DNA of 64,000 nucleotides. It comes from an uncultured Bacteroidales bacterium. Its GTDB lineage: Bacteria; Bacteroidota; Bacteroidia; Bacteroidales; Paludibacteraceae. Positions 20,123 to 39,749 of the stretch are shown here, one piece after another. Below the pieces are notes generated by a model. It saw only the letters and a program-made list of their open reading frames with translations, made no database searches and was not told the DNA's origin. The stretch's first letter is position 1; each line of letters starts with the position of its first letter. The position numbers were made by a program, and so were the translations under genes. Where the stretch lies: NCBI GenBank assembly GCA_934728255.1, contig CAKVEC010000005.1:8419-72418 (forward strand), read 5' to 3'.

Positions 20123-20425
20123 ATGAATAGTACACAATATTACATAGATACGCTTCGGGCACATGCTGCTGAACTACAAACGCGGTTTGGCATATCGTAT
20201 ATGCGTCTTTTCGGTTCTGTGGCACGCGGCGAGCAGCGGGAAGACAGCGATGTGGATATTTTTGTTGAGATGCCTGCTACAATGAAAGAGGTTTGCGGGG
20301 CACAATTGTTTTTAGAGAAATTATTGGGCTGCAATGTAGATTTAATCCGCAAGCACAGCAACCTCAGTACGTACTTTCTAAACCAAGTAGAGAAAAATGG
20401 TATCACTATCTTCGGAGCAGCGTGA
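20123..20425 (+). CDS. Nucleotidyltransferase-domain antitoxin (MntA-like, type VII TA)
   Basis: 100 aa. 'LFGSVARGEQREDSDVDIFV' is the minimal NTase GS...DxD motif. Confidence 0.8.
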   Translation: MNSTQYYIDTLRAHAAELQTRFGISYMRLFGSVARGEQREDSDVDIFVEMPATMKEVCGAQLFLEKLLGCNVDLIRKHSNLSTYFLNQVEKNGITIFGAA

Positions 20426-20780
20426 ATTGGCAAAACGCACATTATCACAAATTCAATCGGCAATCATACAACTAAATGAATGGAATACCGATGTGGTGAG
20501 TCAAGATGACTGGCTACATTCTTCCGAGGGAATGAGACGTTTGGCGGCAAATTGTATGTTGATTGAAGCCATTGGTGAAGGACTCAAGAAAGTAGATAAG
20601 CGAACAGATGGGCAATTGTTGGTGTTGCGTTCTGAAATACCATGGCAGGAAGTAATGGCTATGCGCAATCATATAGCCCATGGCTATTTTGATATAGACG
20701 CTGAATTTGTGTATGGGGTTATTAAGAATGATTTGCTTCCGTTATTGGAGGCTGTGGATTTTTTGATCACGCAGTTATAA
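20397..20780 (+). CDS. HepT-like / DUF86 RNase toxin
   Basis: 127 aa. 'MRNHIAHGY' matches the RX4HXY HEPN motif. It overlaps the NTase gene by 29 nt, the typical TA arrangement. Confidence 0.8.
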   Translation: MVSLSSEQRELAKRTLSQIQSAIIQLNEWNTDVVSQDDWLHSSEGMRRLAANCMLIEAIGEGLKKVDKRTDGQLLVLRSEIPWQEVMAMRNHIAHGYFDIDAEFVYGVIKNDLLPLLEAVDFLITQL

Positions 20781-20960
20781 TCATATCATAATATATAAGT
20801 CTTTTTGTTTGTGGGACTATAAAACAATAAATACATCCTTGGTCTCTGGATGTGAAACATAGAGACCTATTGAAGTTCACGCAGAGGTGTGGGGTGGGTA
20901 TTATGGCTTGCGCAAGCAGTAAGCCCGCCAAACATCAATGTAATGGGCTTCACAGACATA

Positions 20961-21282
20961 ATAAAAGGCGTTTATTGCGCTCTGTTCTGACGAATTGAAA
21001 TGTCGCAGTTTCTTTAGAGTAATCAGACTTAGCAACGATAGATGTCCTCGGAATATAAGTATATTTCGCAACCTGTGTAGGGGCACGGGCATCTTGCCCG
21101 TAGGTGGTATGCAAGTACCATTGATTGTTCCCTTTCTATGCTCTTTTGTAGAGTGTGGTTTGATCATAGGTGTGCGTATAGTCTTATATTGGCGTGGGCT
21201 TCGCGTTGTCGGTTCTATTACTCAAGGCAATGCGACAGCCTCAATTCGTGGAACGACGACGGTCGAACTCCACGTTTTTTTT
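20961..21282 (+). ncRNA. Candidate structured ncRNA, unknown family, copy B; ends in an intrinsic terminator
   Basis: Homologous 5' and 3' blocks to 847..1117. The terminator stem 'gtggaacgacgacggtcgaactccac' plus the T-run at 21275-21282 differs from copy A but keeps its pairing. Confidence 0.4.
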
Positions 21283-21406
21283 GTGCTCAATTGTAGGCTA
21301 AAAGGGGAAAACACACAGAAACACACGGAAAAACACACCGCATAGGTTACAAACATACAATATAATGCCATAAACTATATACGTCCAATCTTAAAAATAT
21401 CCGAAT

Positions 21407-21808
21407 ATGAAAAAACTACTTACCTTGTTCGCTGCCTGTATCTTTGGTGCAGTAATGGTTTATGCAGATGTTCTGAAATTACAAGCAACATCTCTGGCTT
21501 TCAAATCTCAAAATGACTATGGCTATTGGTCTGACTGGTCGGATTGGGAAAGTACAAACATTTTAGTTGTAGTAAATACGGATATTGACAGAGTGAATAT
21601 CTATTCCAGTTCTCCGCAAGAATATGATATTTATGATTATGATGCTGAAGAGAAAGATGGTGAGGGCGGAACTATATCTACCTGTCATTGTATCGACCAA
21701 AATGGTACTCGATGTGATATGCGGATTCGCTTTCAAGCAAATGGGCAGGTTCAATTATATGTTGATTATGCTGATTTTATGTTTGTTTATAATGTTCAAA
21801 GAAAATAA
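21407..21808 (+). CDS. Small secreted hypothetical protein (first gene of FHA/kinase operon)
   Basis: Signal peptide 'MKKLLTLFAACIFGAVMVYA'. A 5-nt gap separates it from the next ORF. Confidence 0.5.
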   Translation: MKKLLTLFAACIFGAVMVYADVLKLQATSLAFKSQNDYGYWSDWSDWESTNILVVVNTDIDRVNIYSSSPQEYDIYDYDAEEKDGEGGTISTCHCIDQNGTRCDMRIRFQANGQVQLYVDYADFMFVYNVQRK

Positions 21809-21813
21809 AAGTT

Positions 21814-22917
21814 ATGCGTTGTAGTAATTGTGGTTGGGATAATCCCAACGGACTTAGTAAGTGTGAAAAATGTGGTACTCCTCTTGCTGCCGGTAATTCG
21901 CAACAGAGTTCCTCTGCTTCTGTATCCCCTGCGGAATATGCAGGTACTGCCGTAGAAAGCAGCCGTGCAGAGTCTCCATTTAGCAAAACGGTTAATGAAG
22001 CCAGTGTATTTGGCGGATTAGATCCCGAGGCACCGATTATGTCTCCGTCGGCTAATGATGGGCGTTGTCCGGAGTGCGGTTATCCGCTTCGTCCCGGGGT
22101 GTCTGTCTGCCCCAAGTGCCACCACCTCATAGGGCACAATGGCAGTTTGGCTGCTAAAATCGGCGGAAATACAACGCAGCGTGAAACGCCCGATGCTGTG
22201 AGAGATAAACCGAGCACCCCTGCCAACTTCGGAGGAACTGTTATGCCCGGTATGAATATCACCCCTGATATATGGTTTTCGCTCACGCCGCAACCCCTTC
22301 CTAACGAGCGGGAAACACCCGAGAAAGTGGAGTTTGAGGGCAAACATCACGAACTGAATCGCGCCAATATCGATCCTAAGAATCACACTATTACGAGTAA
22401 GGTTCAGGCAGTAATGGACTATGATGAGGAAAAGAAAAAATGGTATATTCAGGATAAGTCGGCTTTGCAATATACGTTCTTGCATTGTACGGGTGATATA
22501 CTGCTAATGGATAGCGATGTCTTGCTTATGGGCGACCGTAAGTTTATCTTCTATGCGGAACAGTCGCAACCCGATGCAGAGCCGCAAGATTTTACCGGTA
22601 CTATTGCTGCAGGTCGTCTGCGTGTGAATGTTCCGCGTTGTAGGCTTGTCCCTATGGTGGAAGAATATGAACAAGATGCACCCCAAGAGCATCTGTTCCG
22701 CGGGAATGTTCATCAATTGAACCGTGCCAATCTTGATCCTGAAAATCATACGATCACCAGTCATATACAGGCGGAACTGAAGTATGAAGACGGACATTGG
22801 TATATCAAGGATTGCTCGCAACTGCAGACAACGTACATTCTCTGCAAAGACCCTATGGACTTGAAAGACGGAGATCGTCTTCTAATGGGTAATCGTGTAT
22901 TTGTATTCAATTGTTAG
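21814..22917 (+). CDS. Double zinc-ribbon protein with two FHA domains
   Basis: The zinc ribbons are 'CSNCGWDNPNGLSKCEKCG' and 'CPECGYPLRPGVSVCPKCH'. Two repeats, 'HELNRANIDPKNHTITSKVQAV...WYIQDKS...LLMGDRKFIF' and 'HQLNRANLDPENHTITSHIQAEL...WYIKDCS...LLMGNRVFVF', are FHA-like. Confidence 0.75.
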   Translation: MRCSNCGWDNPNGLSKCEKCGTPLAAGNSQQSSSASVSPAEYAGTAVESSRAESPFSKTVNEASVFGGLDPEAPIMSPSANDGRCPECGYPLRPGVSVCPKCHHLIGHNGSLAAKIGGNTTQRETPDAVRDKPSTPANFGGTVMPGMNITPDIWFSLTPQPLPNERETPEKVEFEGKHHELNRANIDPKNHTITSKVQAVMDYDEEKKKWYIQDKSALQYTFLHCTGDILLMDSDVLLMGDRKFIFYAEQSQPDAEPQDFTGTIAAGRLRVNVPRCRLVPMVEEYEQDAPQEHLFRGNVHQLNRANLDPENHTITSHIQAELKYEDGHWYIKDCSQLQTTYILCKDPMDLKDGDRLLMGNRVFVFNC

Positions 22918-22920
22918 GCT

Positions 22921-24198
22921 ATGGCAGATCGTTGCGATTTTTCGGTTGGCGACTATATTGATGGCAAGTATCGCGTTACCAAAATGCTCGGTGAAGGCAG
23001 TTTTGGTAAAGTGTTTTGCGTTTCGGATAATACAGGGAATAATTACGCCCTCAAATTGCTCAAACTATGGGAAATACACCCCGATATACGGCAGCAGTTG
23101 GTCAGCCGCTTTGATATGGAATATGAAACAGGGCGTATCAATAGCCCTTATCTGGTACATGCGATAGGACACGGTCTGGCTCAAGGCAACCCGTATATAG
23201 TGATGGAGTTTTGCCCGGGGGGAGATTTGAAAGGTGCTGCTCCGGATACCGATTGGAACAAGGTTGCACACGAAGTGCTGCTCGGACTGAAGGCTCTGCA
23301 CCTTTGTGGTAAGGTACATCGGGATTTGAAACCGGAGAATGTCCTTATAAAAACAGATGGTACTGCCGCTTTAACCGACTTTGGTATATCCGGAGACCGC
23401 AATAAGCGTATGACGGAGCGCAATATCTTGGGTAAGCCCACTCAGATATTCGGTACGTATGGCTATATGCCGCCGGAACAAATCAGTCCTAAGAGCGGCG
23501 ATGCGACGGTGCTCCCGACTACGGATATATTTTCGTTTGGCGTGATGATGTACGAACTTCTGACCGGTTCTCTCCCTTTCGGAACACTTCGGGACGAAAA
23601 TGAATGGGTGCTTTATGCCAAAAATGGCAGAGAAGGCAACTGGGATCGGCAACGATTGTTGACGACTCCATATGGTAACCAATTTATGCAGGCTATAGAG
23701 GGCTGCCTTGTACCCGATTTCAAACACCGTTTGCAGTCGTGTGATGAGGTGCTGGCATTGCTTCCGCAAACAGCCAATATGCAAAAGTTACTCGCTTCAG
23801 ACGAATCACTCAAGACTCCTTCTGTTATTCATGGTCTGCTGCTACATATCATGCAAGGCGAGGAATATGGTAAGAAGTATGATCTTACGCAGTTGGCACA
23901 TCGGAGTTACGTTCTCAATATGGGGCGTGCTGCTATTGGGGTTAATAACGATATTCCTATCGTAGAGAACAAGAGCAGTTATATCTCGCGTAAACACTGC
24001 ACATTGGAGTATGACGATAGCAGCAGCCATTGGTTCATACGCGATGGTCAGTGGGATAATGGCAGTGACGGAGGCTGGAAACATTCGCTCAATGGCACTT
24101 TCGTCAATTCCAGACAAGTGGACGAGACGGGTTACTTTATTCAAATAGGCGACATTATATCTATAGGAGATACCAAACTACGTGTAGAAGCGTATTAA
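22921..24198 (+). CDS. Hanks-type Ser/Thr protein kinase (RD type) with C-terminal FHA domain
   Basis: Kinase motifs 'LGEGSFGKVF', 'ALKLL', 'HRDLKPENVLI', 'DFGIS' and 'YMPPE'. The C-terminal 'GRAAIGVNNDIPI...ISRKHCTLEY...NGTFVNSRQV...GDIISIGDTKLRV' is FHA-like. Confidence 0.85.
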   Translation: MADRCDFSVGDYIDGKYRVTKMLGEGSFGKVFCVSDNTGNNYALKLLKLWEIHPDIRQQLVSRFDMEYETGRINSPYLVHAIGHGLAQGNPYIVMEFCPGGDLKGAAPDTDWNKVAHEVLLGLKALHLCGKVHRDLKPENVLIKTDGTAALTDFGISGDRNKRMTERNILGKPTQIFGTYGYMPPEQISPKSGDATVLPTTDIFSFGVMMYELLTGSLPFGTLRDENEWVLYAKNGREGNWDRQRLLTTPYGNQFMQAIEGCLVPDFKHRLQSCDEVLALLPQTANMQKLLASDESLKTPSVIHGLLLHIMQGEEYGKKYDLTQLAHRSYVLNMGRAAIGVNNDIPIVENKSSYISRKHCTLEYDDSSSHWFIRDGQWDNGSDGGWKHSLNGTFVNSRQVDETGYFIQIGDIISIGDTKLRVEAY

Positions 24199-24211
24199 AA
24201 ACAACCAAATT

Positions 24212-24883
24212 ATGGCAAATCAAATTACAATCGGGCGCAATCCGCAAAATACTATTGTGGTGAACGCGCAATACAACACGGTTAGTGGTAGTCATGCTAC
24301 CATTAGCAGAAATGGCAATACATTGACCTTTGAAGACCATTCTACGAATGGTTCGTATGTCAACGGACAAAAAGTACATCATAGTTCTATTACAATTCAA
24401 CAAGGAGATATTATCACTTTAGGGCATCAATACACCCTGAATATGAATGACGTACTCCGCTATATGGGCGGTAGTCGTGATACACAGCGTACACCACAAG
24501 TTCCCGGTACAGCACGCGAGATACCTACTCCTATTGTGCGACAAGAGCCACAGCACGCCGAAGCACCTGCACCTAAAGCAGAACCGAATAATCTCAATTC
24601 TTTCAATTGGGGTGCATTTCTACTTAGTTGGATATGGGGGTGTGGCAATGGTATCTATTGGCCGCTTATCGTTCTCATCCCCGGCGTAGGATGGGTGGTA
24701 GGAATAGTCATACCTTTTGTCCTCGGCTTCAATGGCAACCGTATGGCGTGGGAGAAATACAACGACTCCGCCCTCGCTTTCGAAGACAAACAGGCATCTT
24801 GGACCAAAGGGGCATGGATATATGTAATCTGTGTATTTATTCTTTCATTCATCATCGGAATGCTTATGGGATTTGCCGATTAG
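24212..24883 (+). CDS. FHA domain protein with C-terminal multi-pass membrane region
   Basis: 'ITIGRNPQNTIVV...VSGSHATISR...NGSYVNGQKV...GDIITLG' is FHA-like. The hydrophobic C-terminus includes 'FNWGAFLLSWIWGCGNGIYWPLIVLIPGVGWV'. Confidence 0.75.
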   Translation: MANQITIGRNPQNTIVVNAQYNTVSGSHATISRNGNTLTFEDHSTNGSYVNGQKVHHSSITIQQGDIITLGHQYTLNMNDVLRYMGGSRDTQRTPQVPGTAREIPTPIVRQEPQHAEAPAPKAEPNNLNSFNWGAFLLSWIWGCGNGIYWPLIVLIPGVGWVVGIVIPFVLGFNGNRMAWEKYNDSALAFEDKQASWTKGAWIYVICVFILSFIIGMLMGFAD

Positions 24884-24925
24884 ACAATGCAGTGGAAAAA
24901 ATAATGGATAATTATATGATAATTA

Positions 24926-26422
24926 ATGTTTTATAAAAATAGTATGGCACAATCAACTACGTACAAACGTACACTCAGCGGCTCCGTAGGAGCGGGAATC
25001 GGATCTATGTTCAATGCGGGTGGTAGAAACTACTACATTCTCGAGCACAAAGTATCTTCCAAGTACCATAAAGCCGGTGAAGCACAAGAGATTATCGTCG
25101 ATCAGATTGAATTGGGACGCGACTCGAGTTGTGCAGTGCAATTTGATGAATCGTTCACAACGGTCAGCCGTCATCATGCTGCCATTGTGCGCGATGGGGA
25201 TAACTGGAAACTGGTGCAATTGAGCAAAACCAATCAAACGTTTCTCAACGGTCATCCCGTCAAGAGCGAGTGGTATTTGCAAAATGGTGATGAGATACAA
25301 CTATCCGTCAATGGTCCGAAACTCGGTTTTATCATTCCGCAGAATAACAAAGTAGGCACTATTGGTTTGAGCCGCCGGTTAAGCGCATTCCGTCAGCAGG
25401 CTCTCAAACCCTATAAAACGGCTATGTGGAGTATGGCGGTATGTATACTGCTGCTTATTTGTGTGGGCGTTGGATGGGGGATATATGATCACAAGCAAGA
25501 TGTGGAATATCGGACATTGACCGAACAGCAGCGAATTGAGGCTGAGCAACAACACAAGGAGGCATTAGCAGCCGCCAAAGCAGAGCGTGAGGATTTGGAA
25601 AAACAACTCAAAAACGTGAAAGCAGATATGAAACGGCTTAAAAGCGGCTCCAATCAAGCCGTTGCCGAACCAGCCAAAGTATCTCGCTCCACTACGTCCA
25701 ATAAGTCTATTGCTGACTGTGAACCGAACGTATATTTTGTATATATCAAAAAAATCGTTGTTACCTATAATGGTGAAACCAAGACATTAGAGGATGTTGG
25801 TACGGGTACCGGTTTCCTTTTGTCTGATGGACGCTTTGTTACGGCTCGCCATGTGGTGGAACCTTGGGCATATCCTTCGGGACCGGATGATACAAATAAC
25901 CTAATCTGCAATGCTATTGCTAACAATGGTGGTAAGGTCGTTTGTTATCTGGATGCCTATTCTCCTTCAGGAAAGATTTTACGTTTGGTATCAACCAATG
26001 CGAAAATCAACCGTTCTACTGATGAGACAATCAACTATGATGGAACACCACTGCGTCTCGCATCCAACGATGCTACCGATTATGCCTACTTCCAAACCAA
26101 TGAACATGGAGGGCTGCCTTACAATGTCTCTTTATCGAAGCAACTGCCGGTACAAACCAAACTGACTATCCTTGGCTATCCGATGGCGCTCGGCGCACAC
26201 TCCCCGGGTGATATTCATCCCATCTATAGCGAGGCAACCGTTGCACGTGAAGGATTGGAGCAGGGGTATATTCTCACTACTGCCACCACTTTCGAACATG
26301 GCAATTCCGGTGGTCCTGTCTTTGCTACAACTACAGATGACGAACTCATCGTGGTGGGTATTGTATCGGCAGGCGCAGGACGCTCCACCGGTTTGGTAGT
26401 CCCTATTTCCGCAATTAAATAA
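24926..26422 (+). CDS. FHA - TM - coiled coil - trypsin-like serine protease fusion
   Basis: FHA region 'IELGRDSSCAVQF...VSRHHAAIVR...NQTFLNGHPV...GDEIQLS', TM 'MWSMAVCILLLICVGVGWGIY', and a Glu/Lys-rich coil. The protease triad context is 'GTGFLLSDGRFVTARHVV', 'DYAYF' and 'HGNSGGPVF'. An alternative start is the ATG at 24944. Confidence 0.8.
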   Translation: MFYKNSMAQSTTYKRTLSGSVGAGIGSMFNAGGRNYYILEHKVSSKYHKAGEAQEIIVDQIELGRDSSCAVQFDESFTTVSRHHAAIVRDGDNWKLVQLSKTNQTFLNGHPVKSEWYLQNGDEIQLSVNGPKLGFIIPQNNKVGTIGLSRRLSAFRQQALKPYKTAMWSMAVCILLLICVGVGWGIYDHKQDVEYRTLTEQQRIEAEQQHKEALAAAKAEREDLEKQLKNVKADMKRLKSGSNQAVAEPAKVSRSTTSNKSIADCEPNVYFVYIKKIVVTYNGETKTLEDVGTGTGFLLSDGRFVTARHVVEPWAYPSGPDDTNNLICNAIANNGGKVVCYLDAYSPSGKILRLVSTNAKINRSTDETINYDGTPLRLASNDATDYAYFQTNEHGGLPYNVSLSKQLPVQTKLTILGYPMALGAHSPGDIHPIYSEATVAREGLEQGYILTTATTFEHGNSGGPVFATTTDDELIVVGIVSAGAGRSTGLVVPISAIK

Positions 26423-26423
26423 A

Positions 26424-27797
26424 ATGATAACGATTATGAAAAACAAGAATGTATTATTTCGTATGGCGGCACGCTGCGAGGCTGCAGGACGCCCGAACAA
26501 TGAAGATAACTATCAAATAGATGCCGACCTGTCTGACGACAAGTGGGGCTTTACGGCGGATGCACAAGTCGAGTTGGGCAAAAAAGGTGCTCTGTTGGTT
26601 GTATGCGATGGTATGGGTGGAATGAATGCCGGTGAAGTAGCCTCCGCCATTGCTGTAGAAACTATCAAAAGTCATTTCGCAGCGGAGCAACTGACCGATG
26701 CTGCATTGACAGAGCCGATGGCATACATCAAAAATGCCATTGTGGCTGCCGATGCTGCTATCAAGAAACATGGCAAGGAGCATCCCGACACTGCCGGTAT
26801 GGGTTCTACTATCGTGTTGGCATGGCTGCTCGGCAAGAAAGTATATGTCGGTTGGTGTGGCGATAGCCGTTGCTATTGCTACAATTCCAAGACAGGACTG
26901 GTTCGCTTGAGTCACGACCACTCGTATGTGCAGGAATTGGTGGATGCCGGCAAACTGACCGAGGAACTGGCTTTCGACCATCCGAACAACAATATCATTA
27001 CGCGCTCGCTGGGGGACCCTAATGGTACGGCCCGTCCGGATGTGAAAGAGTATGACCTCCATAATGAGGATATTCTGCTCTTGTGTTCCGATGGGCTATG
27101 TGGTTGCCTCCGTGATAATGAGATAGAGGAGCAACTGGCTGCTCACCAGACCTCAATGCAGGAATGTCGTGATGCACTTTGGGTTGCAGACGAGGCGGCA
27201 GGGTGGCATGATAATGTTACGGTCGCTTTGGCGCAAGTCATCAGTGGTGCAATGCCTGCAGTTTCTGTCAAACAAACATCAAGTTCTGCTGACAAAGCGC
27301 TGCTACAAACCAATAAACGTCTCAAAATTATTATTGCCGTTCTTGCCGTATTGCTGCTCGCGATTCTCTCGGTTTGGGCATACAAACCTGTAAAGCGAAT
27401 GGTTACAGAGAGGAATAATACTACGGGAAGAACAGTTCTGCAATCGGATAGCATATCTGAAAGCACAACAACTGCGGAGCAAGAAAACACAGAGCCTAAA
27501 AAAAATAATCAAAATAACGACACCATTCAGACGCAAACACCCCCAACTCCTCCCAAAGCAGAAGTTGATATCAACAAACTGAATACTGGAAAAGAAAAAG
27601 TTCCGGAGGTTCAAAAAGCAAATGAAGATGTACATAATAACGCTGCTCCAAAACAAGACACGGAAAAGCCAAAAGAGGAAGTGCCTAATGTGAAAACAGT
27701 TGGGGATGATGCTTCGGTAACGGAACCAAGTGCAAATAATGGGGGAACAACCGCATCAAAAACGAATGATAGTTCAGAGCCAAATGATGCCGAATAA
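26424..27797 (+). CDS. PP2C-family Ser/Thr phosphatase with TM anchor and low-complexity tail
   Basis: 'RPNNEDNY', 'LLVVCDGMGGMNAGEVAS', 'GSTIVLAWL...VGWCGDSRCY' and 'LLLCSDGL', then the TM 'LKIIIAVLAVLLLAILSVWAY' and a Thr/Pro/Lys/Glu-rich tail. An alternative start is at 26436. Confidence 0.85.
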   Translation: MITIMKNKNVLFRMAARCEAAGRPNNEDNYQIDADLSDDKWGFTADAQVELGKKGALLVVCDGMGGMNAGEVASAIAVETIKSHFAAEQLTDAALTEPMAYIKNAIVAADAAIKKHGKEHPDTAGMGSTIVLAWLLGKKVYVGWCGDSRCYCYNSKTGLVRLSHDHSYVQELVDAGKLTEELAFDHPNNNIITRSLGDPNGTARPDVKEYDLHNEDILLLCSDGLCGCLRDNEIEEQLAAHQTSMQECRDALWVADEAAGWHDNVTVALAQVISGAMPAVSVKQTSSSADKALLQTNKRLKIIIAVLAVLLLAILSVWAYKPVKRMVTERNNTTGRTVLQSDSISESTTTAEQENTEPKKNNQNNDTIQTQTPPTPPKAEVDINKLNTGKEKVPEVQKANEDVHNNAAPKQDTEKPKEEVPNVKTVGDDASVTEPSANNGGTTASKTNDSSEPNDAE

Positions 27798-27900
27798 TTT
27801 TTGTGCTGCCGTTTTTTGCATAGACATATTCTCCAAATTATGCATAATAAGCAATTCCTATACTTCATAATACAATTTACGGCAACGAGACGGCAACGAC

Positions 27901-27960
27901 ATACACCTTTATGCGGTGCTTTTATACACTTTATGCACTGTATATCTGCATAAAGTGTAT
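27901..27960. repeat. Three copies of ATACAC(C)TTTATGC(A): two direct, one inverted (14-bp perfect inverted repeat 27924-27937 / 27947-27960)
   Basis: Read directly in the 231-nt spacer between the PP2C gene and the second kinase operon. No T-run follows, so it does not look like a classic terminator. Confidence 0.7.
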
Positions 27961-28028
27961 GGATGTTGTTCTGATGTGGTTGTCCTTAAATAATAGTGAT
28001 TCAACTAAAACCGACTAACGATTAAATT

Positions 28029-29669
28029 ATGCAACTACAAGAAAATACGCTTTTCGCGAATAGATACCAACTTATCAAACTTCTGGGACGCGGTGGCTTC
28101 TCTGAGGTCTGGCTGGCAAAAGACAATTGGACGCACCTCAAGATTGCGCTCAAAGTCTATGCACCAGGCACGGGTATGGACGCCAACGGCTTGCAGGAGT
28201 TCTGTGGTGAACTGGCAAGCGTCTATGACCTCAATCATACCAATCTGCTCAAGCCGCAGCACGTGGATACGTGGGAAAATATGCCGTACTTGATTATGGC
28301 GTATTGTTCGCAAGGTTCATGCGGCAGTAAGTTGGGAAAGATGTCCGAAACTGAGATGTGGAAGTTTATCCACGATGTAGCGGCAGGATTAGCGTACTTG
28401 CATTCGAAAGATGTGGTGCACCAAGATATCAAACCCGACAATATCCTTATTGACGATGCGGGTAACTATCTGATTACCGATTTTGGGGTCTCTACTCGTG
28501 CACGTAGCACGTTGCGCAAAAGCGTTGTTGCTTCTTCTGCAGGCGGTACAACCGCGTATATGGGACCGGAGCGTTTCTCTCGCCAACCGGCTCCTACAAA
28601 GGCAAGCGATATCTGGTCGTTTGGTGCGATGTGCTTTGAGTTATTAGAGGGTGTTGTACCCTTTGGTGAGATAGGTGGCGGTATGCAGAAAGGCGGTGCG
28701 GAGATACCTGCTATCACAGCCGATGTCTCCGATGCCCTCAAATACACTATCACCAAGATGCTCCAAAAGGAGACATGGGACAGACCTACAGCCGCCACTT
28801 TGGTTGAGTGGGCAACCAAGCCCGACGCTATCGAGGTGGATTATTCGTTGCTCGAAGAGACCGAACCGGTAGAAACACCATCGGTAAATCCTGTGGATAG
28901 CGATCGTAGTACGCAACGATTAGATTCTGCCACTGGTATCGGTCAAGCCACGCAGCGATTGGGACATACACCTGCGGAAGAGGAAAACGTACCCTTATCC
29001 CTCTCGCCAACGACCGTTCATGTACCCGCTGAAGGAGGTGTAAAGATCATAGATATAAAATCGGATGATACAAATTGGAGAATTGGTCATTATGACGAAT
29101 GGATACATTGGGTAAGCAATAATAGCAATCGTTTTGTTTTGCGTTTTGACAAGAATAAAACGGGTGAAACGCGTAAATGCTCATTGGAAGTTCGCGCACA
29201 CGACAAGACTGGCAAATTGGTACTTGCAACAGTCCAAGTATCCCAGATCTCTTTACCCAAGAGTAATAATTCTTGGTGGAAATGGCTATTGGGTACTATC
29301 CTTTCGATTGCACTGATAGTTGGTATAGGTACTATGATTGAAAACCAGCAAGAGAAACAGCGTTTAGAATCTGCCCATTCTGCAGCCGTAACACGTTTTG
29401 AACAGCAACTTGACGCTGCCGACTTAGATAATATCACGGCTTTAGAAAATGCGCTACAGAGTTTGCGAGACATTGGAAACCTCGAAGATAATAGCAAGTA
29501 TTCCGGCTCATATGTCTATTATAAAAAACAACAATTACTCAAAGACAAAACGCAATCCTTGTACAATACTGCCAATCGTAAATACCAGAAAGCCCCTGCT
29601 GGAACTGATACCGAGCGGAGAAATAAGGAAAAACGTGATAGACTAAATGAAATTTATAATAAGATTTAA
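28029..29669 (+). CDS. Hanks-type Ser/Thr kinase (non-RD, 'HQD') - BACON-like domain - TM - coiled-coil tail
   Basis: 'LLGRGGFSEVWL', 'ALKVY', 'HQDIKPDNILI', 'DFGVS' and 'YMGPERF'. The stretch 'LSLSPTTVHVPAEGG...WRIG...WIHWVS...RKCSLEVRA' is BACON-like. The TM is 'WWKWLLGTILSIALIVGIGTMI'. Confidence 0.85.
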   Translation: MQLQENTLFANRYQLIKLLGRGGFSEVWLAKDNWTHLKIALKVYAPGTGMDANGLQEFCGELASVYDLNHTNLLKPQHVDTWENMPYLIMAYCSQGSCGSKLGKMSETEMWKFIHDVAAGLAYLHSKDVVHQDIKPDNILIDDAGNYLITDFGVSTRARSTLRKSVVASSAGGTTAYMGPERFSRQPAPTKASDIWSFGAMCFELLEGVVPFGEIGGGMQKGGAEIPAITADVSDALKYTITKMLQKETWDRPTAATLVEWATKPDAIEVDYSLLEETEPVETPSVNPVDSDRSTQRLDSATGIGQATQRLGHTPAEEENVPLSLSPTTVHVPAEGGVKIIDIKSDDTNWRIGHYDEWIHWVSNNSNRFVLRFDKNKTGETRKCSLEVRAHDKTGKLVLATVQVSQISLPKSNNSWWKWLLGTILSIALIVGIGTMIENQQEKQRLESAHSAAVTRFEQQLDAADLDNITALENALQSLRDIGNLEDNSKYSGSYVYYKKQQLLKDKTQSLYNTANRKYQKAPAGTDTERRNKEKRDRLNEIYNKI

Positions 29670-29670
29670 T

Positions 29671-30819
29671 ATGAAACGACTAATTCTATTAGGTTGCTTA
29701 ATATGCACTTGTTCATTTTTTGTCTATGCTGATGAAGATTGTACGGGTGCGCTTCAAGAGGCAAAGTCCGCATACAATGCAGGAGATTATCAAAAAGCAA
29801 AAAGGTTATATGACTATGTAGTGTCAGAATGTGGGAACAACTATGGGAATGCTGCCGTTATGCTAAGGCAATGCGAAGAAATGCTAAACCCCAAGTTGTC
29901 TGTTAGTAGATCCTACATAACAATAGGCGCCTCGTCCGGTTCTACTACGTTGTCGGTTACAAGCAATCGTAATTGGGAACTGCGAAATACCAATTCAAAT
30001 ATGTTCTCGGTTTATAAAAACGGAAGCACAATCACTATCAACTACTATGCAAATTCAAGTTCCTCATCTCGTTCTGACTATTTTGATGTTGTAACTGCAG
30101 ACGGAAGCAAGTCCGTTCGAATAAACATTTCTCAGTCGGCAGCAAGTATTGCTTCTACATTGTCGGTTAACTCAACGAGTATTTCTAGTCCAGCAAGTGG
30201 CAAGACCGAATACATAATCGTCAATAGTAATACAAATTGGGAAATTCAGTATGCTACAGGCACGATGTATCGTACCACACGTTCTGGAAATATGGTAAAG
30301 GTCGAAATCTTTGCCAATTCTGCGACAAGTAGTAGAACAGATTATTTTTATATCAAGACTGCGGACGGAAGCAAAACACAGAAAATTTCTTTGACACAAT
30401 ATGGAAAAACATCGGCATCTTCTTATAATGCGGCTGCTCGTATTAAGAAAGTTTGGATAGAACATAATGTGTATCAGAATTCTATAAAAGGCATGAAAAT
30501 TCATGTGCGATTTGATGTCGATAATATGAGAAATTGTACAGGACGAGTTGTTGCATACTTCTATCATCAAGGAGGAACTGCGTTGAGAGACGCTAATAAT
30601 AGTTATAGAACGACTTCTGGTGAAATCTCTTGTGGTGAAAGTTTTACGCCTTCATACATTAATACTGCATATAACGATTTCGTTCTTTTTATGCCGTACA
30701 GTGAATTACATTGTACAAGTTATAGTCGCTATAACTTACGTTTTTTTGTTAGTATATTTAATGATCATAGTAGAGAAATGACACAATCAAATTGGGTTCA
30801 GTTTACCTTAACTAATTAA
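29671..30819 (+). CDS. Secreted protein with two BACON-like domains and an unknown C-terminal domain
   Basis: Signal peptide 'MKRLILLGCLICTCSFFVYA'. The repeats are 'LSVSRSYITIGASSGSTTLSVTSNRNWEL...RSDYFDVVTADGSKSVRINISQ' and 'LSVNSTSISSPASGKTEYIIVNSNTNWEI...RTDYFYIKTADGSKTQKISLTQ'. The ATG lies 1 nt after the kinase stop (TAATATG). Confidence 0.65.
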   Translation: MKRLILLGCLICTCSFFVYADEDCTGALQEAKSAYNAGDYQKAKRLYDYVVSECGNNYGNAAVMLRQCEEMLNPKLSVSRSYITIGASSGSTTLSVTSNRNWELRNTNSNMFSVYKNGSTITINYYANSSSSSRSDYFDVVTADGSKSVRINISQSAASIASTLSVNSTSISSPASGKTEYIIVNSNTNWEIQYATGTMYRTTRSGNMVKVEIFANSATSSRTDYFYIKTADGSKTQKISLTQYGKTSASSYNAAARIKKVWIEHNVYQNSIKGMKIHVRFDVDNMRNCTGRVVAYFYHQGGTALRDANNSYRTTSGEISCGESFTPSYINTAYNDFVLFMPYSELHCTSYSRYNLRFFVSIFNDHSREMTQSNWVQFTLTN

Positions 30820-30831
30820 TATGTGAAATCT

Positions 30832-32319
30832 ATGCAACTAATCGAAAATACGTATTTTGGCGAGAATAATCGCTATTATTTGGAGAAACTACTCGGTAGA
30901 GGTGGGTTTTCAGAAGTTTGGTTGGTGAAAGATAATATCACCAACTTGGAATTAGCCCTAAAGGTGTATGCCCCCGGCACAGGAATGGATGAAGACGGCT
31001 TACAGACTTTCAGTCAAGAGTTGGCGCGGGTCTATAATCTCAATCATACAAATCTTCTCAAACCTCAGCATGTAGATTCATATCAAGGTATGCCTTACCT
31101 GACTATGTCCTATTGCCCGCAGGGGTCTTTGGTTAGGCGGATAGGTAAGATGTCAGAACAGGAGGTTCGCAAAGTTATTCACGATGTGGCTGCAGGATTG
31201 GCGTATCTGCACGAGCGTGATATTATCCACCAAGACATCAAACCCGACAATATATTGATAGATAATGCGGGCAATTATGTCATTACTGATTTCGGTATTT
31301 CAACCCGCGCTCGCAGCACGTTGCGCAAGAGTGTAGCAGCCTCTTCTGCTAATTCGGGTGGTACAATTGCGTATATGGGACCGGAGCGTTTCGGCAAAGA
31401 ACCTGCACCTATCAAAGCCAGCGATATATGGTCGTTGGGCGCAATGTGCTATGAACTGATGACCGGCGATACACCATTTGGCGAACATGGAGGACTTATT
31501 CAGAAATCAGGGGCAGAAATTCCTAATATAGGGGGTAACTACTCAGACGAACTTAAACAGATAGTGGAGCAGATGTTATCCCTCAATCCGTGGGACAGAC
31601 CTACGGCTGCGGCTTTGGAGAAAGGAGATTTCTCAACTACAGTACCGGAGCGTAATCGTCCTACGGTGGCAAAAACTACGTCTCGTTCTACACAACCAAC
31701 CGTTAATTCACCAACAGACAATGGAATAATAAAAAACAATTCTACACAAAACAATGTAGGAACAACAAATAAGAAAAAGAAAATTGTGTGGACTATCGTA
31801 TGCTTCCTATTATTAGTCGCATTAGCAGTAGGTATCAGTATATGTGTGAACAATAATAATGCGCAAACCTATAGTACTGCACAACAGACACAACCCGTTT
31901 CTACTATTTCAAAACCAGTTGTAGAAGAATATAGGTATGAAACCATAGATAAAAATAGGGTACAGACTTTACTTACCAATATATCCCGTTGCTCGAGTAG
32001 AGGAGGCAATTATAGTTTGTTGAGCGATTATTATACATACGAGATAAATCCATATGTTAGAGTGGGAGTAAACAGATATAATTATGATATAGGTGAAAAA
32101 ATCAAAGCCTACGCGGAGAAATTCCCTAAATACGAAATGTCAGACCCTTATAATTTCTCATACCTAAATACTTCATTTCCATTAACGGTCAAATGTGATG
32201 TATTGGTGGATTGGATTAATACACAAGGTATTTCCCGAAAGGCTATTCTTCATAAAACTTACTATATAACATCTGATTACAAAGTATCCGGATTTACTGA
32301 CGAACAAGTAAATCTGTAA
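30832..32319 (+). CDS. Hanks-type Ser/Thr kinase (non-RD), paralogue of 28029..29669, with TM and divergent C-terminal domain
   Basis: It shares long identical runs with the upstream kinase: 'LLGRGGFSEVWL', 'ALKVYAPGTGMD', 'LNHTNLLKPQHVD', 'IHDVAAGLAYLH', 'HQDIKPDNILID' and 'STRARSTLRKSV'. The start MQLIEN parallels MQLQEN. The TM is 'IVWTIVCFLLLVALAVGISICV'. Confidence 0.85.
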   Translation: MQLIENTYFGENNRYYLEKLLGRGGFSEVWLVKDNITNLELALKVYAPGTGMDEDGLQTFSQELARVYNLNHTNLLKPQHVDSYQGMPYLTMSYCPQGSLVRRIGKMSEQEVRKVIHDVAAGLAYLHERDIIHQDIKPDNILIDNAGNYVITDFGISTRARSTLRKSVAASSANSGGTIAYMGPERFGKEPAPIKASDIWSLGAMCYELMTGDTPFGEHGGLIQKSGAEIPNIGGNYSDELKQIVEQMLSLNPWDRPTAAALEKGDFSTTVPERNRPTVAKTTSRSTQPTVNSPTDNGIIKNNSTQNNVGTTNKKKKIVWTIVCFLLLVALAVGISICVNNNNAQTYSTAQQTQPVSTISKPVVEEYRYETIDKNRVQTLLTNISRCSSRGGNYSLLSDYYTYEINPYVRVGVNRYNYDIGEKIKAYAEKFPKYEMSDPYNFSYLNTSFPLTVKCDVLVDWINTQGISRKAILHKTYYITSDYKVSGFTDEQVNL

Positions 32320-32344
32320 AATATAGTTGAGAGTCTATAACATT

Positions 32345-33991
32345 ATGAACCGATTAACAGTTCTTTTGGCGGCACTCTGCATGTCAGTGATGTCGCTCGT
32401 GGCGCAGCAGACTGCGCAAATCAGACAATTGATGGATAGTGCACAATATGCGGAAGCGGTGCAACTATGTACCATCGAGTTACAACAACACCCCAAGGAT
32501 GGTATGCTGTACCGCTGTCGTGCCATTGCCAACATCATGCAGGAGCAATATGGTATGGCGTTGCAGGATATAGATATGCTTCTCAAGTATGCCAAGACAT
32601 CCGGTATATCCGTCAGCGAAGTATATGAACTGCGTGGTGCCACATATATGTATGCGGGTGAGTTGCAGAAAGCGTTGGACGACTACACCACCGCCATCAA
32701 GAAAGACAAGAAGAACGCCGATGCGTATGCCGCACGGGGTGAGTTGTACTACCATAAGGAGAACTACGCGGCAGCCCTTGCGGACTACAAGGCGGCAAGC
32801 AAATTAGTGCCAGCCGATGACTCGTACCTCGTGGAGATAGCACGCTGTACCCTGCAATTGGGCAAATATGATGAGGCGCGTGCCATGCTCACTTCTATCA
32901 CAGTGCTCTATCCCTACAACGCCGAGGCGTGGCGACTGTCCGCAGGATTGGCGATGTTGAGCGGCGAGACTACCAAGTTCATAGACCAGTATATCCGTTA
33001 CCTCAATCTCAGTTACAACGAGACAGGGCGGTTTGGCGATACCGATATACTGATTGCCGCCGCCGATACCGAGTATCCGTACCTGCTCCATGCCGTGTCC
33101 GAACAGATAAGCAACCTAACGGATTATCCGCAGTTGTTCTATATGGGTGTCCGTGTCCGTATCTATATAGAGAAAGGGTACTATGCCGATGCTATCAAAG
33201 ACTTGGATATGATGGAGCGGATAGAGGGAACCGCCGACCCGTTTGTGCTTGCCAATCGCGCAGATTGCTACCAAAACCTGTATCAGTACCACAAGGCGAT
33301 AGCCGATTATGATGCTATGTTGGCATTGGATGCCACCTATTCGTATGGTTATATCAGTCGTGGTTTGTGCTATGCCGAGTTGGGGCAATACGACAAGGCT
33401 ATCGGTGACTTTACGTACGTTATACAAAATGATGTCAATTATGCCTATTATGCCTACTATCGCAGAGGGTGGGTGTATGAGTTCCAAAAGGATACTACGG
33501 CGGCACTATCCGACTACTCGCGCGGAATAGAGTTGGAAGATGACTATAATTATTTGCATCTGATGCGTGGCGAGATATATTGGAATATGGGAGATACCCT
33601 GCAAGCCAAATCCGATTTTGAAAGAATACTCGAATTGGATACGGTAGCCCGTGCAGGGTCGTGCCGCCAATATGCATTGTACTTCTTGGGACAAGAAAAT
33701 GAGGCTGTGCAGTGGATGCAAAGTATGATAGAGAGTGCATCTGACAAGGCCGGGTGTTACTATGATGCCGCTTGTCTGTATGCCCGTATGAACAAGACAG
33801 AAGAGGCGTTGGCGGCTTTCGACAAGTGCCTGTCGTTGGGGTATAAACGGTTCAAACATATTGAAGTGGATGATGACCTTGACAATATCCGCAACCTGCC
33901 GCGCTTCACTGAGATACTCAACAAGTACCGCAAACAAGAGGTACAGAGCAAGTTCGATTTGCTGAAAGGGGCTGATACGGATATGAAATAG
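32345..33991 (+). CDS. Secreted TPR-repeat protein
   Basis: Signal peptide 'MNRLTVLLAALCMSVMSLVAQQ', then many 34-aa repeats with the A/Y/G pattern, for example 'AYAARGELYYHKENYAAALADYKAA'. Confidence 0.8.
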   Translation: MNRLTVLLAALCMSVMSLVAQQTAQIRQLMDSAQYAEAVQLCTIELQQHPKDGMLYRCRAIANIMQEQYGMALQDIDMLLKYAKTSGISVSEVYELRGATYMYAGELQKALDDYTTAIKKDKKNADAYAARGELYYHKENYAAALADYKAASKLVPADDSYLVEIARCTLQLGKYDEARAMLTSITVLYPYNAEAWRLSAGLAMLSGETTKFIDQYIRYLNLSYNETGRFGDTDILIAAADTEYPYLLHAVSEQISNLTDYPQLFYMGVRVRIYIEKGYYADAIKDLDMMERIEGTADPFVLANRADCYQNLYQYHKAIADYDAMLALDATYSYGYISRGLCYAELGQYDKAIGDFTYVIQNDVNYAYYAYYRRGWVYEFQKDTTAALSDYSRGIELEDDYNYLHLMRGEIYWNMGDTLQAKSDFERILELDTVARAGSCRQYALYFLGQENEAVQWMQSMIESASDKAGCYYDAACLYARMNKTEEALAAFDKCLSLGYKRFKHIEVDDDLDNIRNLPRFTEILNKYRKQEVQSKFDLLKGADTDMK

Positions 33992-35710: not shown

Positions 35711-35852
35711 TTAGGTCTTTTAATTTGCAAGTGGCGTAGCGTATAACAGATTGGTGAGTACGCAGACAAAGCACTCAATCAAAATGCAAAAGATATGGAT
35801 TGGCAGTGTTAATTGCGGTGCTAATTGTCGTATTAATAATATGTTTGGCAAT

Positions 35853-38086: not shown

Positions 38087-38266
38087 ATGGAAAAGAAAAT
38101 GTCACCACTGGCACAAGCCGTTCAGGAGGCACAACGCCCCCGTCCAACAATTGATTTGGTTTACAATTCTGACACAGGTGTGTTCTCGGAAACAGCAGCA
38201 GGAAGTGTTACGGAAGGTCTGCCCGTTACAGAAATCACTAAAGGAGGATTCGCATGTCGGAACTAA
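38087..38266 (+). CDS. 59-aa mini-ORF with near-C-terminal Gly-Gly, candidate modifier/precursor peptide (not in supplied ORF track)
   Basis: My translation is MEKKMSPLAQAVQEAQRPRPTIDLVYNSDTGVFSETAAGSVTEGLPVTEITKGGFACRN*. Its last 13 nt overlap the E1-like start at 38254. It shares a motif block with the N-terminus of ORF 39200. Confidence 0.45.
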   Translation: MEKKMSPLAQAVQEAQRPRPTIDLVYNSDTGVFSETAAGSVTEGLPVTEITKGGFACRN

Positions 38267-39183: not shown

Positions 39184-39199
39184 GAAAGATGGAAGTGAA

Positions 39200-39622
39200 A
39201 TGAATGATTTGAATGACATTGTTTTTAATCCCGAGACCGGGCTGTTTGAGAGCAAAACCAATATCACAGCCCACCTTACGGAGTGCCAAATACAGGGGGG
39301 TAGCAGAAGCCGTCGTATGATAGACCCCGCACGTGCTGCCTTGAAACCCGTCATAGTGGATTTTCGGGTAGAAGGCGGATATGAGCATAAGGTCGGATCT
39401 GAGGTATGTGTGCGTTGGCGTGTGGCAAATGCGCAGAAAATCATTATTCATTTCCACAATCACCGCGCATTGGAATATGATATGCAGGGTACTTTGCGGT
39501 TTGTTATGCCTGATGAGGATTGCAAGGTACGCTTGGTTGCAACGAATCAGGACGTAAAAACCCAAAGTACTATTTCCTTGATATCTCGTCGTCTAACCAT
39601 CTTCGACCGTTTATTCAGGTGA
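39200..39622 (+). CDS. Hypothetical protein: N-terminal GG-terminated module paralogous to the mini-ORF, plus a beta-rich C-terminal domain
   Basis: 'NDIVFNPETGLFES...LTECQIQGG' parallels 'IDLVYNSDTGVFSE...VTEITKGG'. The remainder ('KPVIVDFRVEGG...VCVRWRV...KIIIHF...CKVRLVATN') looks like an Ig-like sandwich, which is an inference. Confidence 0.5.
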   Translation: MNDLNDIVFNPETGLFESKTNITAHLTECQIQGGSRSRRMIDPARAALKPVIVDFRVEGGYEHKVGSEVCVRWRVANAQKIIIHFHNHRALEYDMQGTLRFVMPDEDCKVRLVATNQDVKTQSTISLISRRLTIFDRLFR

Positions 39623-39643
39623 TAAAATCCTTATAACACCAAT

Positions 39644-39665: not shown

Positions 39666-39749
39666 AATGGGTATTACGTGTTTAGCACAATGTACTATGT
39701 ATTTACCGTAGTCGTCAGTGTGAGGACAACTGCAGAATAGATTATTATT

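Follow-up and report, generated by a model that had tools for sequence, protein, structure and literature searches.

A 64,000-nucleotide (nt) stretch of DNA from an uncultured bacterium of the Bacteroidales family Paludibacteraceae (contig CAKVEC010000005.1, positions 8,419 to 72,418; referred to below as the window) carries ten adjacent genes, here called g1 to g10, that combine Ser/Thr kinases, FHA domains, a PP2C phosphatase and a serine protease (positions 21407–33991 of the window). These genes appear to encode a self-contained membrane Ser/Thr phospho-signalling module that controls the protease and plays an accessory role at the cell envelope or surface, a reading to which we assign a probability of about 0.5. 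Compared by sequence with its relatives, the module is an apparently invariant cytoplasmic core joined to an interchangeable, predicted extracytoplasmic periphery, and it is widespread in Bacteroidales of the gut and rumen. It is distinctive in having a transmembrane (TM) protease that is predicted to be gated by an FHA domain, and in the division of its kinases into non-RD enzymes and an RD enzyme fused to an FHA domain.

To our knowledge, signalling by Hanks-type kinases, FHA domains and PP2C phosphatases has been well studied in Actinobacteria, Firmicutes and the type VI secretion system (T6SS) of Pseudomonas, and hardly at all in the Bacteroidales, which predominate among the Gram-negative orders of the gut. 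No account of the module was found in a literature search whose coverage was thin for subscription journals. The module could be the first case of a cytoplasmic phosphothreonine (pThr) code that steers a periplasmic protease by way of a transmembrane FHA fusion. It belongs to a large family with testable wiring, and the presence of a complete copy in a cultured species, Phocaeicola sartorii, makes it experimentally approachable.

Core proteins and proposed signal flow

All ten co-oriented genes described in an earlier note on this DNA, made from the letters alone, are present as plus-strand open reading frames (ORFs) where that note had placed them. Pfam profile hidden Markov models recovered nearly all of its domain calls, and hydropathy agreed with its TM segments and signal peptides, including signal-peptide-like N-termini in g1, g8 and g10. 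The protein around which the interpretation turns is g5 (24926–26422), which consists of an N-terminal T(Q)xYKR peptide, a canonical FHA domain (Pfam, E 1e-16), a TM segment, a coiled coil and an HtrA/DegS-like serine protease (Trypsin_2, E 6e-12). Its likely true start is Met7, at 24944, from which the N-terminus conforms to M-[AS]-Q-x-T-Q-x-Y-K-R with a nearly invariant Thr. The protease had been singled out as the one obvious effector of the cluster. It is the only obvious effector other than the kinases, and its catalytic triad is conserved: H309, D385 and S461 (in the contexts ARH309, D385 and GNS461GGP) and the loop residues of the FHA domain are invariant in an alignment of 61 sequences that extends down to 52% identity. 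Homologues of g5 number in the thousands. Among 1.84 billion clusters (50% identity), 336 representatives match at E<=1e-30, and most of the best 150 of these cover nearly the entire query in one stretch.

The TM segment of g5 lies at residues 168–186 by hydropathy, between the FHA domain and the protease. In the structural model it forms part of a long helix (149–236) that also includes the coiled coil, while the protease domain is modelled with a predicted local distance difference test (pLDDT) score of mostly 85–97 over residues 250–498. A Foldseek search with this domain returned as its nearest neighbours the catalytic domains of HtrA1, HtrA2, DegS, DegP and the plant Deg proteases (E ~1e-9, target-normalised TM-score 0.63–0.68, 15–20% identity). 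No PDZ domain was found in g5, either as a Pfam match or as an additional domain in the model, the chain stopping with the protease at residue 498. The residues before the TM segment are basic and those after it acidic; because of this charge pattern, and because the FHA domain has to be on the same side as the kinases, the protease domain probably faces the periplasm. In this respect g5 resembles E. coli DegS, which acts in the DegS–RseA pathway, and other HtrA proteins: each is, or in the case of g5 is predicted to be, an N-terminally anchored serine protease of the chymotrypsin fold that faces the periplasm, with regulated proteolysis as its output. Unlike those proteins, g5 has no PDZ domain and instead has a regulatory FHA domain across the membrane, connected through the long coiled coil, and there is no anti-sigma/sigma factor pair nearby. 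We infer that g5 is a DegS-like anchored protease in which the regulatory domain has been shifted to the cytoplasmic face.

The FHA domain of g5 is, by sequence, nearest to those of GarA and OdhI, and, as in GarA, it is preceded by a conserved N-terminal peptide with a Thr. GarA is switched by the binding of its phosphorylated N-terminal Thr peptide to its own FHA domain. The kinase PknB recruits FHA proteins of the GarA/OdhI type through pThr (PMC6213207). GarA and OdhI are small soluble regulators of metabolism, however, whereas in g5 the FHA domain forms part of a TM protease, for which binding of its own N-terminal peptide is hypothetical.

How would a signal reach this protease? Three genes encode Hanks-type kinases, g3 (22921–24198), g7 (28029–29669) and g9 (30823–32319), all of which have an intact glycine loop, beta-3 lysine and DFG motif. 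The g3 protein is a soluble kinase (Pkinase, E 5e-39) with a C-terminal canonical FHA domain (E 4e-12), no TM segment by hydropathy, the catalytic loop HRDLKPEN and the activation loop GKPTQIFGT. The other two kinases (Pkinase, E 4e-44 for g7 and 1e-47 for g9) each have a single TM segment, at residues 419–437 and 324–342, respectively, and the catalytic loop HQDIKPDN. Thus g3 is an RD kinase (HRD) and g7 and g9 are non-RD kinases (HQD), as had been proposed; the description of g7 and g9 as paralogues also holds, their kinase domains being 64% identical, while that of g3 is just 33% identical to g9. The same two-tier split extends to the related loci described below, where HRD is found in 68 of 82 kinases without a TM segment and HQD in 72 of 88 TM kinases: the TM kinases are non-RD and the soluble FHA kinase is RD. 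The g3 protein is a candidate second-tier or amplifier kinase.

The two receptor kinases differ in what lies between the kinase domain and the periplasm and beyond it. In g7 a linker with two TQRL motifs is followed by a BACON-like domain, which aligns with the second repeat of g8 (E 3e-5), then by the TM segment and a helical periplasmic stretch of about 110 residues. The BACON-like domain had been seen in the earlier note as part of a kinase–BACON–TM protein; it is indeed present, but because it is N-terminal to the only TM segment, between kinase and membrane, it is predicted to be on the cytoplasmic (kinase) side. In g9 the linker contains an STQ motif, and the TM segment is followed by an ectodomain of about 155 residues and unknown fold that occurs in only five other loci. 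Most receptor-kinase ectodomains span 95–170 residues. In the juxtamembrane linkers of the receptors, the dipeptides TQ and QR are enriched 2.5-fold and 3.1-fold, and a motif R-x-T-Q-R-[F/L]-[G/N/S] recurs. In 29 of 59 cases a hydrophobic residue (F, L, W or V) stands three positions after the juxtamembrane Thr, which agrees with the general preference of FHA domains for pT-x-x-hydrophobic. TQ also occupies specific, conserved positions of a regulatory kind elsewhere: the N-terminus of g5, the linker of g4 (GRxTQR) and the activation loop of g3.

Five phosphothreonine readers had been counted in the cluster. Three of them, in g3, g4 and g5, carry the canonical GR, SxxH and NG loop residues, but the two in g2 are atypical. 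The g4 protein (24212–24883) consists of an FHA domain (Pfam, E 2e-16), a linker with the motif SRDTQRTP, of which the form GRxTQR recurs in the family, and a multi-pass membrane domain with at least two TM segments (152–170 and 203–221), making it a candidate membrane adaptor. The g2 protein (21814–22917) is a cytoplasmic double zinc-ribbon protein (DZR, E 7e-8; FHA, E 1e-6) and a candidate scaffold. The second FHA-like module that had been assigned to it was revealed by an internal repeat, in which it follows the first as a duplicated copy (48% identity, E 3e-28); both modules have NR in place of GR and lack SxxH and NG. In most loci g2 is only about 236 residues long and has one module.

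The phosphatase g6 (26424–27797) has a PP2C domain (Pfam, E 7e-14) in which the motifs DGMGG62, CSDG221 and DNVT263 are kept, one TM segment at residues 302–320 by hydropathy, and then some 135 residues of low complexity that form a periplasmic tail. In NCBIfam its best match is to Stp1/IreP-like phosphatases (E 2e-60; score 204 bits, cut-off 230); apart from this placement, no specific NCBIfam family was found for any member of the module.

The three remaining genes encode secreted proteins. The first, g1 (21407–21808), is a small protein of 133 residues with a W-rich motif, GYWSDWSDWE, and an unknown fold; profile searches found no relative in Pfam, NCBIfam or the sequences of the PDB. The g8 protein (29671–30819, the ORF opening at 29647) had been described as having two BACON-like domains. 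The resemblance holds for two, but the AlphaFold model (pLDDT 89) shows three beta-sandwich domains (76–155, 164–243 and 255–381), which follow a Cys-containing helical hairpin. Foldseek retrieved merely generic tandem Ig/FN3 neighbours for g8, and its score against BACON (PF13004) is 19 bits, with a cut-off of 25 and E 1e-3. Nevertheless, the g8 family has 53 members, of which 37 reach E<=0.01 against BACON (best 6.5e-7), and the second g8 repeat can be aligned with the g7 domain, so that "BACON-like" seems an acceptable label for the domains of both proteins. Finally, g10 (32327–33991, likely start 32345) is a TPR protein, with Pfam matches to TPR families down to E 1e-32.

Each step of the signal flow that would follow from this architecture is inferred. 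The non-RD receptor kinases g7 and g9 would respond to a stimulus at the envelope or outside the cell, in concert with periplasmic proteins encoded at the same locus (g1, g8 and g10 in the window; c4, Sel1 proteins and RHS-repeat ectodomains elsewhere) and would phosphorylate the juxtamembrane R-x-T-Q-R-[F/L] sites, to which the canonical FHA proteins g3, g4 and g5 could then dock. Once docked, g3, with its PTQIFGT activation loop, would amplify the signal and g4 would act as a membrane adaptor, while recruitment or clustering of g5 would turn on its PDZ-less HtrA/DegS-like domain in the periplasm. A GarA-like intramolecular switch involving the T-Q-x-Y-K-R peptide of g5 might serve as an alternative or additional trigger. 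The output would be regulated periplasmic proteolysis, phosphorylation by g3, or both, and the system would be reset by the TM-anchored phosphatase g6, with the zinc-ribbon protein g2 as a scaffold.

Several observations weigh against this scheme. Among the juxtamembrane regions of 82 receptors only 34 have a TQ, loci of the Paludibacteraceae type account for most occurrences of the RxTQRF motif, and TQ is not enriched over the module proteins as a whole. Residues 1–83 of g5, which include part of its FHA domain, are modelled with pLDDT <50, and the periplasmic placement of its protease derives only from hydropathy and the positive-inside pattern. The FHA modules of g2, judging from their altered loops, may not bind pThr. 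The real output could equally be g3, acting on cytoplasmic targets, with the protease in a side role.

Conservation and variation across the Bacteroidales

Related loci, numbered here with an L, were collected by a pattern scan (two exact octapeptides) of one genome per GTDB species, and the best 80 of 171 species were compared; g5 is present in 80 of 80 loci by construction of the sample. All of these best 80 of 171 loci are from Bacteroidales, with labels that include Paludibacteraceae, Muribaculaceae, Prevotellaceae, Bacteroidaceae, Tannerellaceae, Rikenellaceae and Azobacteroides, although some bins are obviously mislabelled. Within the sample, g2 occurs in 69–73 loci, g3 in 75 and g6 in 73–76 (by tblastn and by independent ORF calling with clustering). 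The g7-type kinases are found in 56, g4 in 36–38, g9 in 26, g8 in 26–30, and the peripheral components g10 and g1 in 16 and 14–15, respectively.

The core order g2–g3–(g4)–g5–(c4)–g6–kinase(s), with gaps of a few nt, is present in about 75 of the 80 loci. It recurs in loci whose flanks are unrelated, which supports the treatment of the block as a unit in the earlier note, where synteny had been suggested as a check; comparison of the sequences thus supports the view that the cluster is one functional unit and not a chance neighbourhood. Gene families from outside the block are each found in six loci at most, and the flanking relA, amiC and mlaD genes, like those further downstream, occur only in the very closest relatives. 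The block encodes no transcription factor.

Within this framework there is considerable variation. The locus usually opens with g2 and g3, sometimes preceded by g1, and the slot before g5 may be filled either by g4 or by a coiled-coil TM protein and a MotA/ExbB protein; g4 may stand before g5 or after the PP2C gene. One to four receptor kinases follow, interleaved with variable secreted proteins, including g8, Sel1-repeat, TPR, c10 and c18 proteins. The window has the Paludibacteraceae-type variant, with g1, a duplicated FHA module in g2, g4 before g5, no c4, and in addition g8 and the TPR protein. Variants outside the Paludibacteraceae have c4, a secreted protein of about 290 residues and unknown fold with a basic or Pro-rich tail, which is present in 42 loci among L027–L080, always between the protease and PP2C genes (e.g., L080 11491–12363). 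No Pfam or PDB relative of c4 was found, the PDB being covered by profile search; it may be a protein that the protease cleaves, one that inhibits it or one that works with it. In eight loci a receptor kinase has an ectodomain of about 925 residues, and in the one such protein scanned Pfam recognised only the kinase domain.

The complete module of P. sartorii, a cultured species from the mouse gut, is found at L083 9240–21293 and in the same form in L084 and L085. It includes c4 and a receptor kinase of 1219 residues, the ectodomain of which has a faint precomputed RHS_repeat annotation. This kinase protein is present on at least 234 contigs.

Other genes are inserted into the operon sporadically, and none of these is in the window. 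In five close relatives (L002, at ~9.9–10.9 kb; L003; L016, at 12470–13333; L020; and L024), g8 is separated from the second receptor kinase by a gene for a 287-residue SIR2_2 protein with weak similarity to ThsA/LmuA (E 1e-6 to 1e-7). An AbiC-like protein is encoded inside the operon in L049. Between g3 and g5, 7–9 loci (including L049, at 8381–9998, L040, L045, L046, L052, L053 and L078) have genes for a TM and coiled-coil protein of about 299 residues and a MotA/ExbB-family protein of about 246 residues; this MotA/MotB-like pair has weak similarity to ZorA/ZorB (E 1e-4), the resemblance of the coiled-coil protein to ZorB/MotB being at its N-terminus. The presence of the pair suggests that these loci represent a variant of the module driven by the proton-motive force.

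Such a pair might indicate that the module regulates an energy-dependent process of the outer membrane or of secretion, whether Ton/Tol-like, gliding/type IX secretion or T6SS, in the manner of PpkA, PppA and Fha1. Control by an FHA protein, a Ser/Thr kinase and PP2C is established for the H1-T6SS of Pseudomonas (PMC6213207). In P. aeruginosa a TM Hanks kinase, a PP2C phosphatase and an FHA protein are likewise co-encoded, and docking of pThr to FHA activates an envelope machine, to which the docking proposed for the module would be a parallel. However, most loci, and the window itself, lack the MotA pair, and structural genes for secretion or motility are missing from the window and from all 80 loci. 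The earlier statement that T6SS genes are lacking was correct for the window and also holds for the recurrent gene families of the 80 loci. Moreover, unlike the H1-T6SS system, the module has no T6SS genes nearby and no vWA periplasmic kinase domain, and its proposed output is a protease. The FHA proteins are not of the TagH/Fha1 type, g4 scoring 50 bits and g5 30 bits against TIGR03354, with a cut-off of 120. Regulation of a secretion process is thus highly improbable.

Another parallel is found in the actinobacterial cluster fhaA–fhaB–pstP–rodA–pbpA–pknA–pknB, which has FHA adaptors, one of them membrane-bound, a TM PP2C phosphatase with an extracytoplasmic tail, two adjacent TM Hanks kinases, phospho-acceptor sites of the TQ type and a single operon-like arrangement. 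By this token the module might be a housekeeping regulator of envelope growth or division, a counterpart of FhaA/FhaB–PstP–PknA/PknB or of PrkC/PrpC in Firmicutes, and there is more to suggest it than the shared parts: the phosphatase is nearest to Stp1/IreP and the kinases to the PknB model, the TQ-type sites are like those of the mycobacterial kinases, and in the window there is an AmiC-like amidase gene upstream and a transpeptidase-domain ORF downstream. Yet the likeness between the two systems, with a TM-anchored PP2C and FHA adaptors beside two TM kinases, is at the level of domains only (FhaB_Rv0019c, 42 bits against a cut-off of 125), and all scores against NCBIfam equivalogs are far under their cut-offs. 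The conserved block has no PASTA, RodA, FtsW or penicillin-binding protein (PBP), in contrast to the actinobacterial cluster with its PASTA sensor, RodA and PbpA. Pfam found no PASTA domain in g7 or g9, whose scores of 149–169 bits against PknB_PASTA_kin (cut-off 450) reflect the kinase domain only, and neither a glycosyltransferase of the SEDS (shape, elongation, division and sporulation) family, such as RodA or FtsW, nor a class B PBP is among the recurrent families of the 80 loci. Conversely, the module adds a soluble RD kinase with an FHA domain and an FHA-anchored periplasmic protease, and its receptors are non-RD. The amidase and transpeptidase neighbours are common only to the closest relatives, and the strict-pattern scan encountered the module in only 171 species-representative genomes. 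We therefore regard the housekeeping role as quite unlikely; the expression of the module in some lineages, discussed below, is also difficult to reconcile with it.

Recombination, putative invertible promoters and the probable role of the module

The core and the periphery of the module have evolved at different rates. Compared with L001, the nearest relative, the number of synonymous substitutions per site (dS) is 0.98 for amiC, 0.57 for mlaD and 0.59 for g1 upstream, and 0.39 for g8, 0.36 for g9 and 0.83 for g10 downstream; for the core g2–g7 (21814–29669) it is 0.10–0.21. Because dS in the core is far below that of the flanks, the substitution pattern indicates a recent exchange of g2–g7 by recombination between the lineages of the window and L001, well after the flanks had diverged. 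The ratio of nonsynonymous to synonymous rates (dN/dS) is 0.01–0.12 for the catalytic domains (g7 kinase, 0.01; g5 protease, 0.03; PP2C, 0.11), which amounts to strong purifying selection. For g1, g8, g10 and the g9 ectodomain it is 0.21–0.33 (0.33 for both g1 and g8), for the periplasmic part of g7 0.51 and for the low-complexity PP2C tail 1.65. By these measures the parts predicted to lie outside the cytoplasm are variable, and their sequences change faster than those of the core.

In some relatives the region upstream of the operon resembles an invertible promoter. In L037, L039, L045, L067 and L069, g2 is immediately preceded, on its own strand, by a gene for a tyrosine recombinase (domains Phage_int_SAM_5, Phage_integrase and Arm-DNA-bind_5). 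The 276–610 nt between recombinase and g2 contain perfect or near-perfect inverted repeats of 15–20 bp (consensus ~TCTCTTnnnAAGAGAT) that flank 147–170 bp; with L043 and L051 included, the repeats measure 15–29 bp. These inverton-like cassettes are located at L037 3717–3903, L039 1864–2063 and 2182–2370 (this locus having two), L045 6057–6256, L067 1779–1964 and L069 7699–7888, and similar inverted repeats only are found at L043 508–697 and L051 7626–7834. In all six segments examined (L037, both in L039, L045, L067 and L069) the -7 promoter motif of Bacteroidota, TAnnTTTG, is situated at one and the same position near the recombinase-proximal repeat and points away from the operon, which suggests that the assemblies captured the OFF state; inversion would be predicted to place the promoter about 100 nt upstream of g2. 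Exact inverted repeats of >=14 nt with a spacing of 100–400 nt occur at 0.22/kb in the 700 nt upstream of the operon and at 0.004/kb elsewhere in the loci. The arrangement corresponds to that of known Bacteroidales invertons. Taken together, these putative invertons imply that at least seven related loci express the entire module in a phase-variable manner. An inverton was also considered for the window and rejected, as there is no recombinase and merely a weak 15-nt inverted repeat (80%).

The variable periphery, the recombination, the phase-variable promoters of relatives and the patchy occurrence of the module all favour an accessory role. The variability of its periphery, the patchy occurrence and the phase variation in some lineages also set the module apart from the actinobacterial cluster, and a putative invertible promoter in the OFF orientation, as found in several lineages, would be implausible for an essential regulator of division. 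Whether the cluster is core or accessory had been left undecided in the earlier note; the question is now partly answered in favour of accessory, the module being chromosomal, recombining and, in some other lineages, apparently phase-variable, and kept at the same locus in close relatives. Such behaviour is more in keeping with an accessory function at the envelope, the most likely role of the module, than with essential housekeeping, and its variable sensors and phase-variable expression hint at a role at the cell surface, in colonisation or in dealing with phages or competitors.

Could the role be anti-phage defence? The kinases would then detect an infection, and proteolysis or mass phosphorylation, in the style of Stk2 or PD-T4-6, would block the phage by abortive infection or otherwise. 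Invertible promoters of the Bacteroidales often govern surface traits that are relevant to phages, and at least seven related loci have putative ones; the hypervariable sensor periphery and the recent exchange of the core would also be in keeping with defence, as would the similarity, albeit weak, of the SIR2_2 protein to ThsA/LmuA and of the MotA/MotB-like pair to ZorA/ZorB, the AbiC-like protein of L049, and the toxin–antitoxin (TA) pair and DUF4011 helicase–restriction endonuclease that lie close by in the window. However, the SIR2, MotA and AbiC genes are sporadic and the linkage to the TA pair is incidental, as described below. PADLOC-DB 2.0 yielded only generic matches to kinase, protease and PP2C domains and no specific multi-component system, with no match for g1, g2, g4 or g10, a marginal match of g8 to DpdH (E 6e-4), and only weak matches for the accessory genes of other loci. 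The matches to Stk2, PD-T4-6, Mad6 of MADS and PglW of BREX (E 1e-13 to 1e-60) reflect the Hanks-type kinase domain that all of these share with the module; they cover the kinase domain only, without partner genes, and those kinases are cytoplasmic single-gene systems or otherwise organised. The proposed effector faces the periplasm, unlike the site at which known abortive-infection effectors act. In addition, the locus stays at the same site in close relatives, and searches of viral contigs (IMG/VR), GenBank phages (INPHARED) and plasmids (PLSDB) did not find the module. We therefore consider a dedicated defence system unlikely, and the phage-sensing relay that the earlier note had suggested is speculative. 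The "ternary" conflict systems (Kaur et al. 2020) were also considered as a match and set aside: these are vWA–MoxR–VMAP systems, in which FHA and PP2C are merely sporadic.

A related idea borrows from eukaryotic receptor-kinase surveillance. Non-RD kinases are the class used by the pattern-recognition receptors of plants and animals. By analogy, fast-evolving non-RD receptors, docking through pThr and FHA to the Chk2-like g3 and, from the inside out, to the protease, and switched by invertons in gut Bacteroidales, might direct envelope proteolysis against phages or competitors at the level of the population. The comparison draws on the same fast-evolving receptors and putative invertons that were discussed above, and we offer it as a rather doubtful extension of the scheme. 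The preferred reading remains that of an accessory envelope module that controls the protease.

Spacer, leader and surroundings of the module

With the likely starts of g8 (29671) and g10 (32345), the gaps from g1 to g10 are 5, 3, 13, 42, 1, 231, 1, 3 and 25 nt. The large gap of 231 nt between g6 and g7 (27798–28028) had led to the proposal of two operons. The spacer is real, but it is lineage-specific: among 47 loci the gap between PP2C and kinase genes has a median of 7 nt and is <100 nt in 43, and it is only 3 nt in L002 and L003, in which g5 is 90% identical to that of the window. A comparable spacer is found only in the window and in its nearest relative, L001 (234 nt). Thus, a division into two operons would be a trait of this lineage and is not a property of the system. 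The spacer contains a perfect 14-bp inverted repeat, ATACACTTTATGCA-N9-TGCATAAAGTGTAT (27924–27960), which is unique in the window and kept in L001, and which might serve as an operator or fold into a hairpin in the RNA. In its 3' half, the spacer is better conserved than the neighbouring coding DNA.

A motif scan found no TAnnTTTG in the spacer and no plus-strand copy upstream of g1, and scans for sigma-70 promoters and terminators, a model that is wrong for Bacteroidota, did no better on the sequence than on shuffles. Upstream of g1 there is a conserved non-coding region of about 600 nt (20781–21406, plus strand), 93–97% identical to L001 and thus above g1 itself (70% at the amino acid level). 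This region could function as a structured leader or give rise to a small RNA. It carries GC-rich hairpins, including a hairpin followed by T8 at ~21250–21283. Scans of the window with Rfam and for tRNAs gave no matches, the leader likewise being without an Rfam match. An ORF of 116 codons in this region (20995–21345) was considered as an eleventh gene and rejected, its frame being broken by a 1-nt indel in L001 although the DNA is still conserved.

Further upstream are housekeeping genes, encoding an aminoacyl-tRNA synthetase, DnaB, MeaB, RelA/SpoT, the AmiC-like amidase and MlaD, and between these and the leader is an MNT (NTP_transf_2)/HepT TA pair (20123–20780). The earlier note had placed the module next to a TA pair and other conflict modules. 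The MNT/HepT pair and defence-like genes are indeed nearby, but the TA pair moves independently of the module: in L001 the MNT gene is downstream of g10 and not upstream of g1, so its linkage to the module appears to be incidental.

On the other side there are several genes of no recognised function and, 1.8 kb downstream of the module, an ORF of 367 residues (35751–36854) that has a partial transpeptidase (PBP) domain (E 3e-14), which NCBIfam matches only at the C-terminal end of the PBP2 and SpoVD models, and which may be a truncated or sensor-type PBP. It is found directly after g10 in L002 and L005 and is otherwise not conserved with the module. The absence of a RodA/PbpA-type partner, which had been noted from the sequence, is therefore correct for the conserved block but has to be qualified for the window by this transpeptidase-domain ORF. 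Beyond it is a variable, defence-like stretch (38254–45813) that encodes a ThiF-family protein (38254–39183), a fusion of 1134 residues between DUF4011, a superfamily 1 helicase and REase_MTES_1575 (39750–43154), a patatin-like phospholipase with DUF6363 (44971–45813) and an unknown protein of 472 residues. The G+C content of the window is ~0.50–0.53 at 6–20 kb and 0.40–0.48 from 20 kb on, and the drop at ~20 kb falls where the TA pair, the module and the variable region begin.

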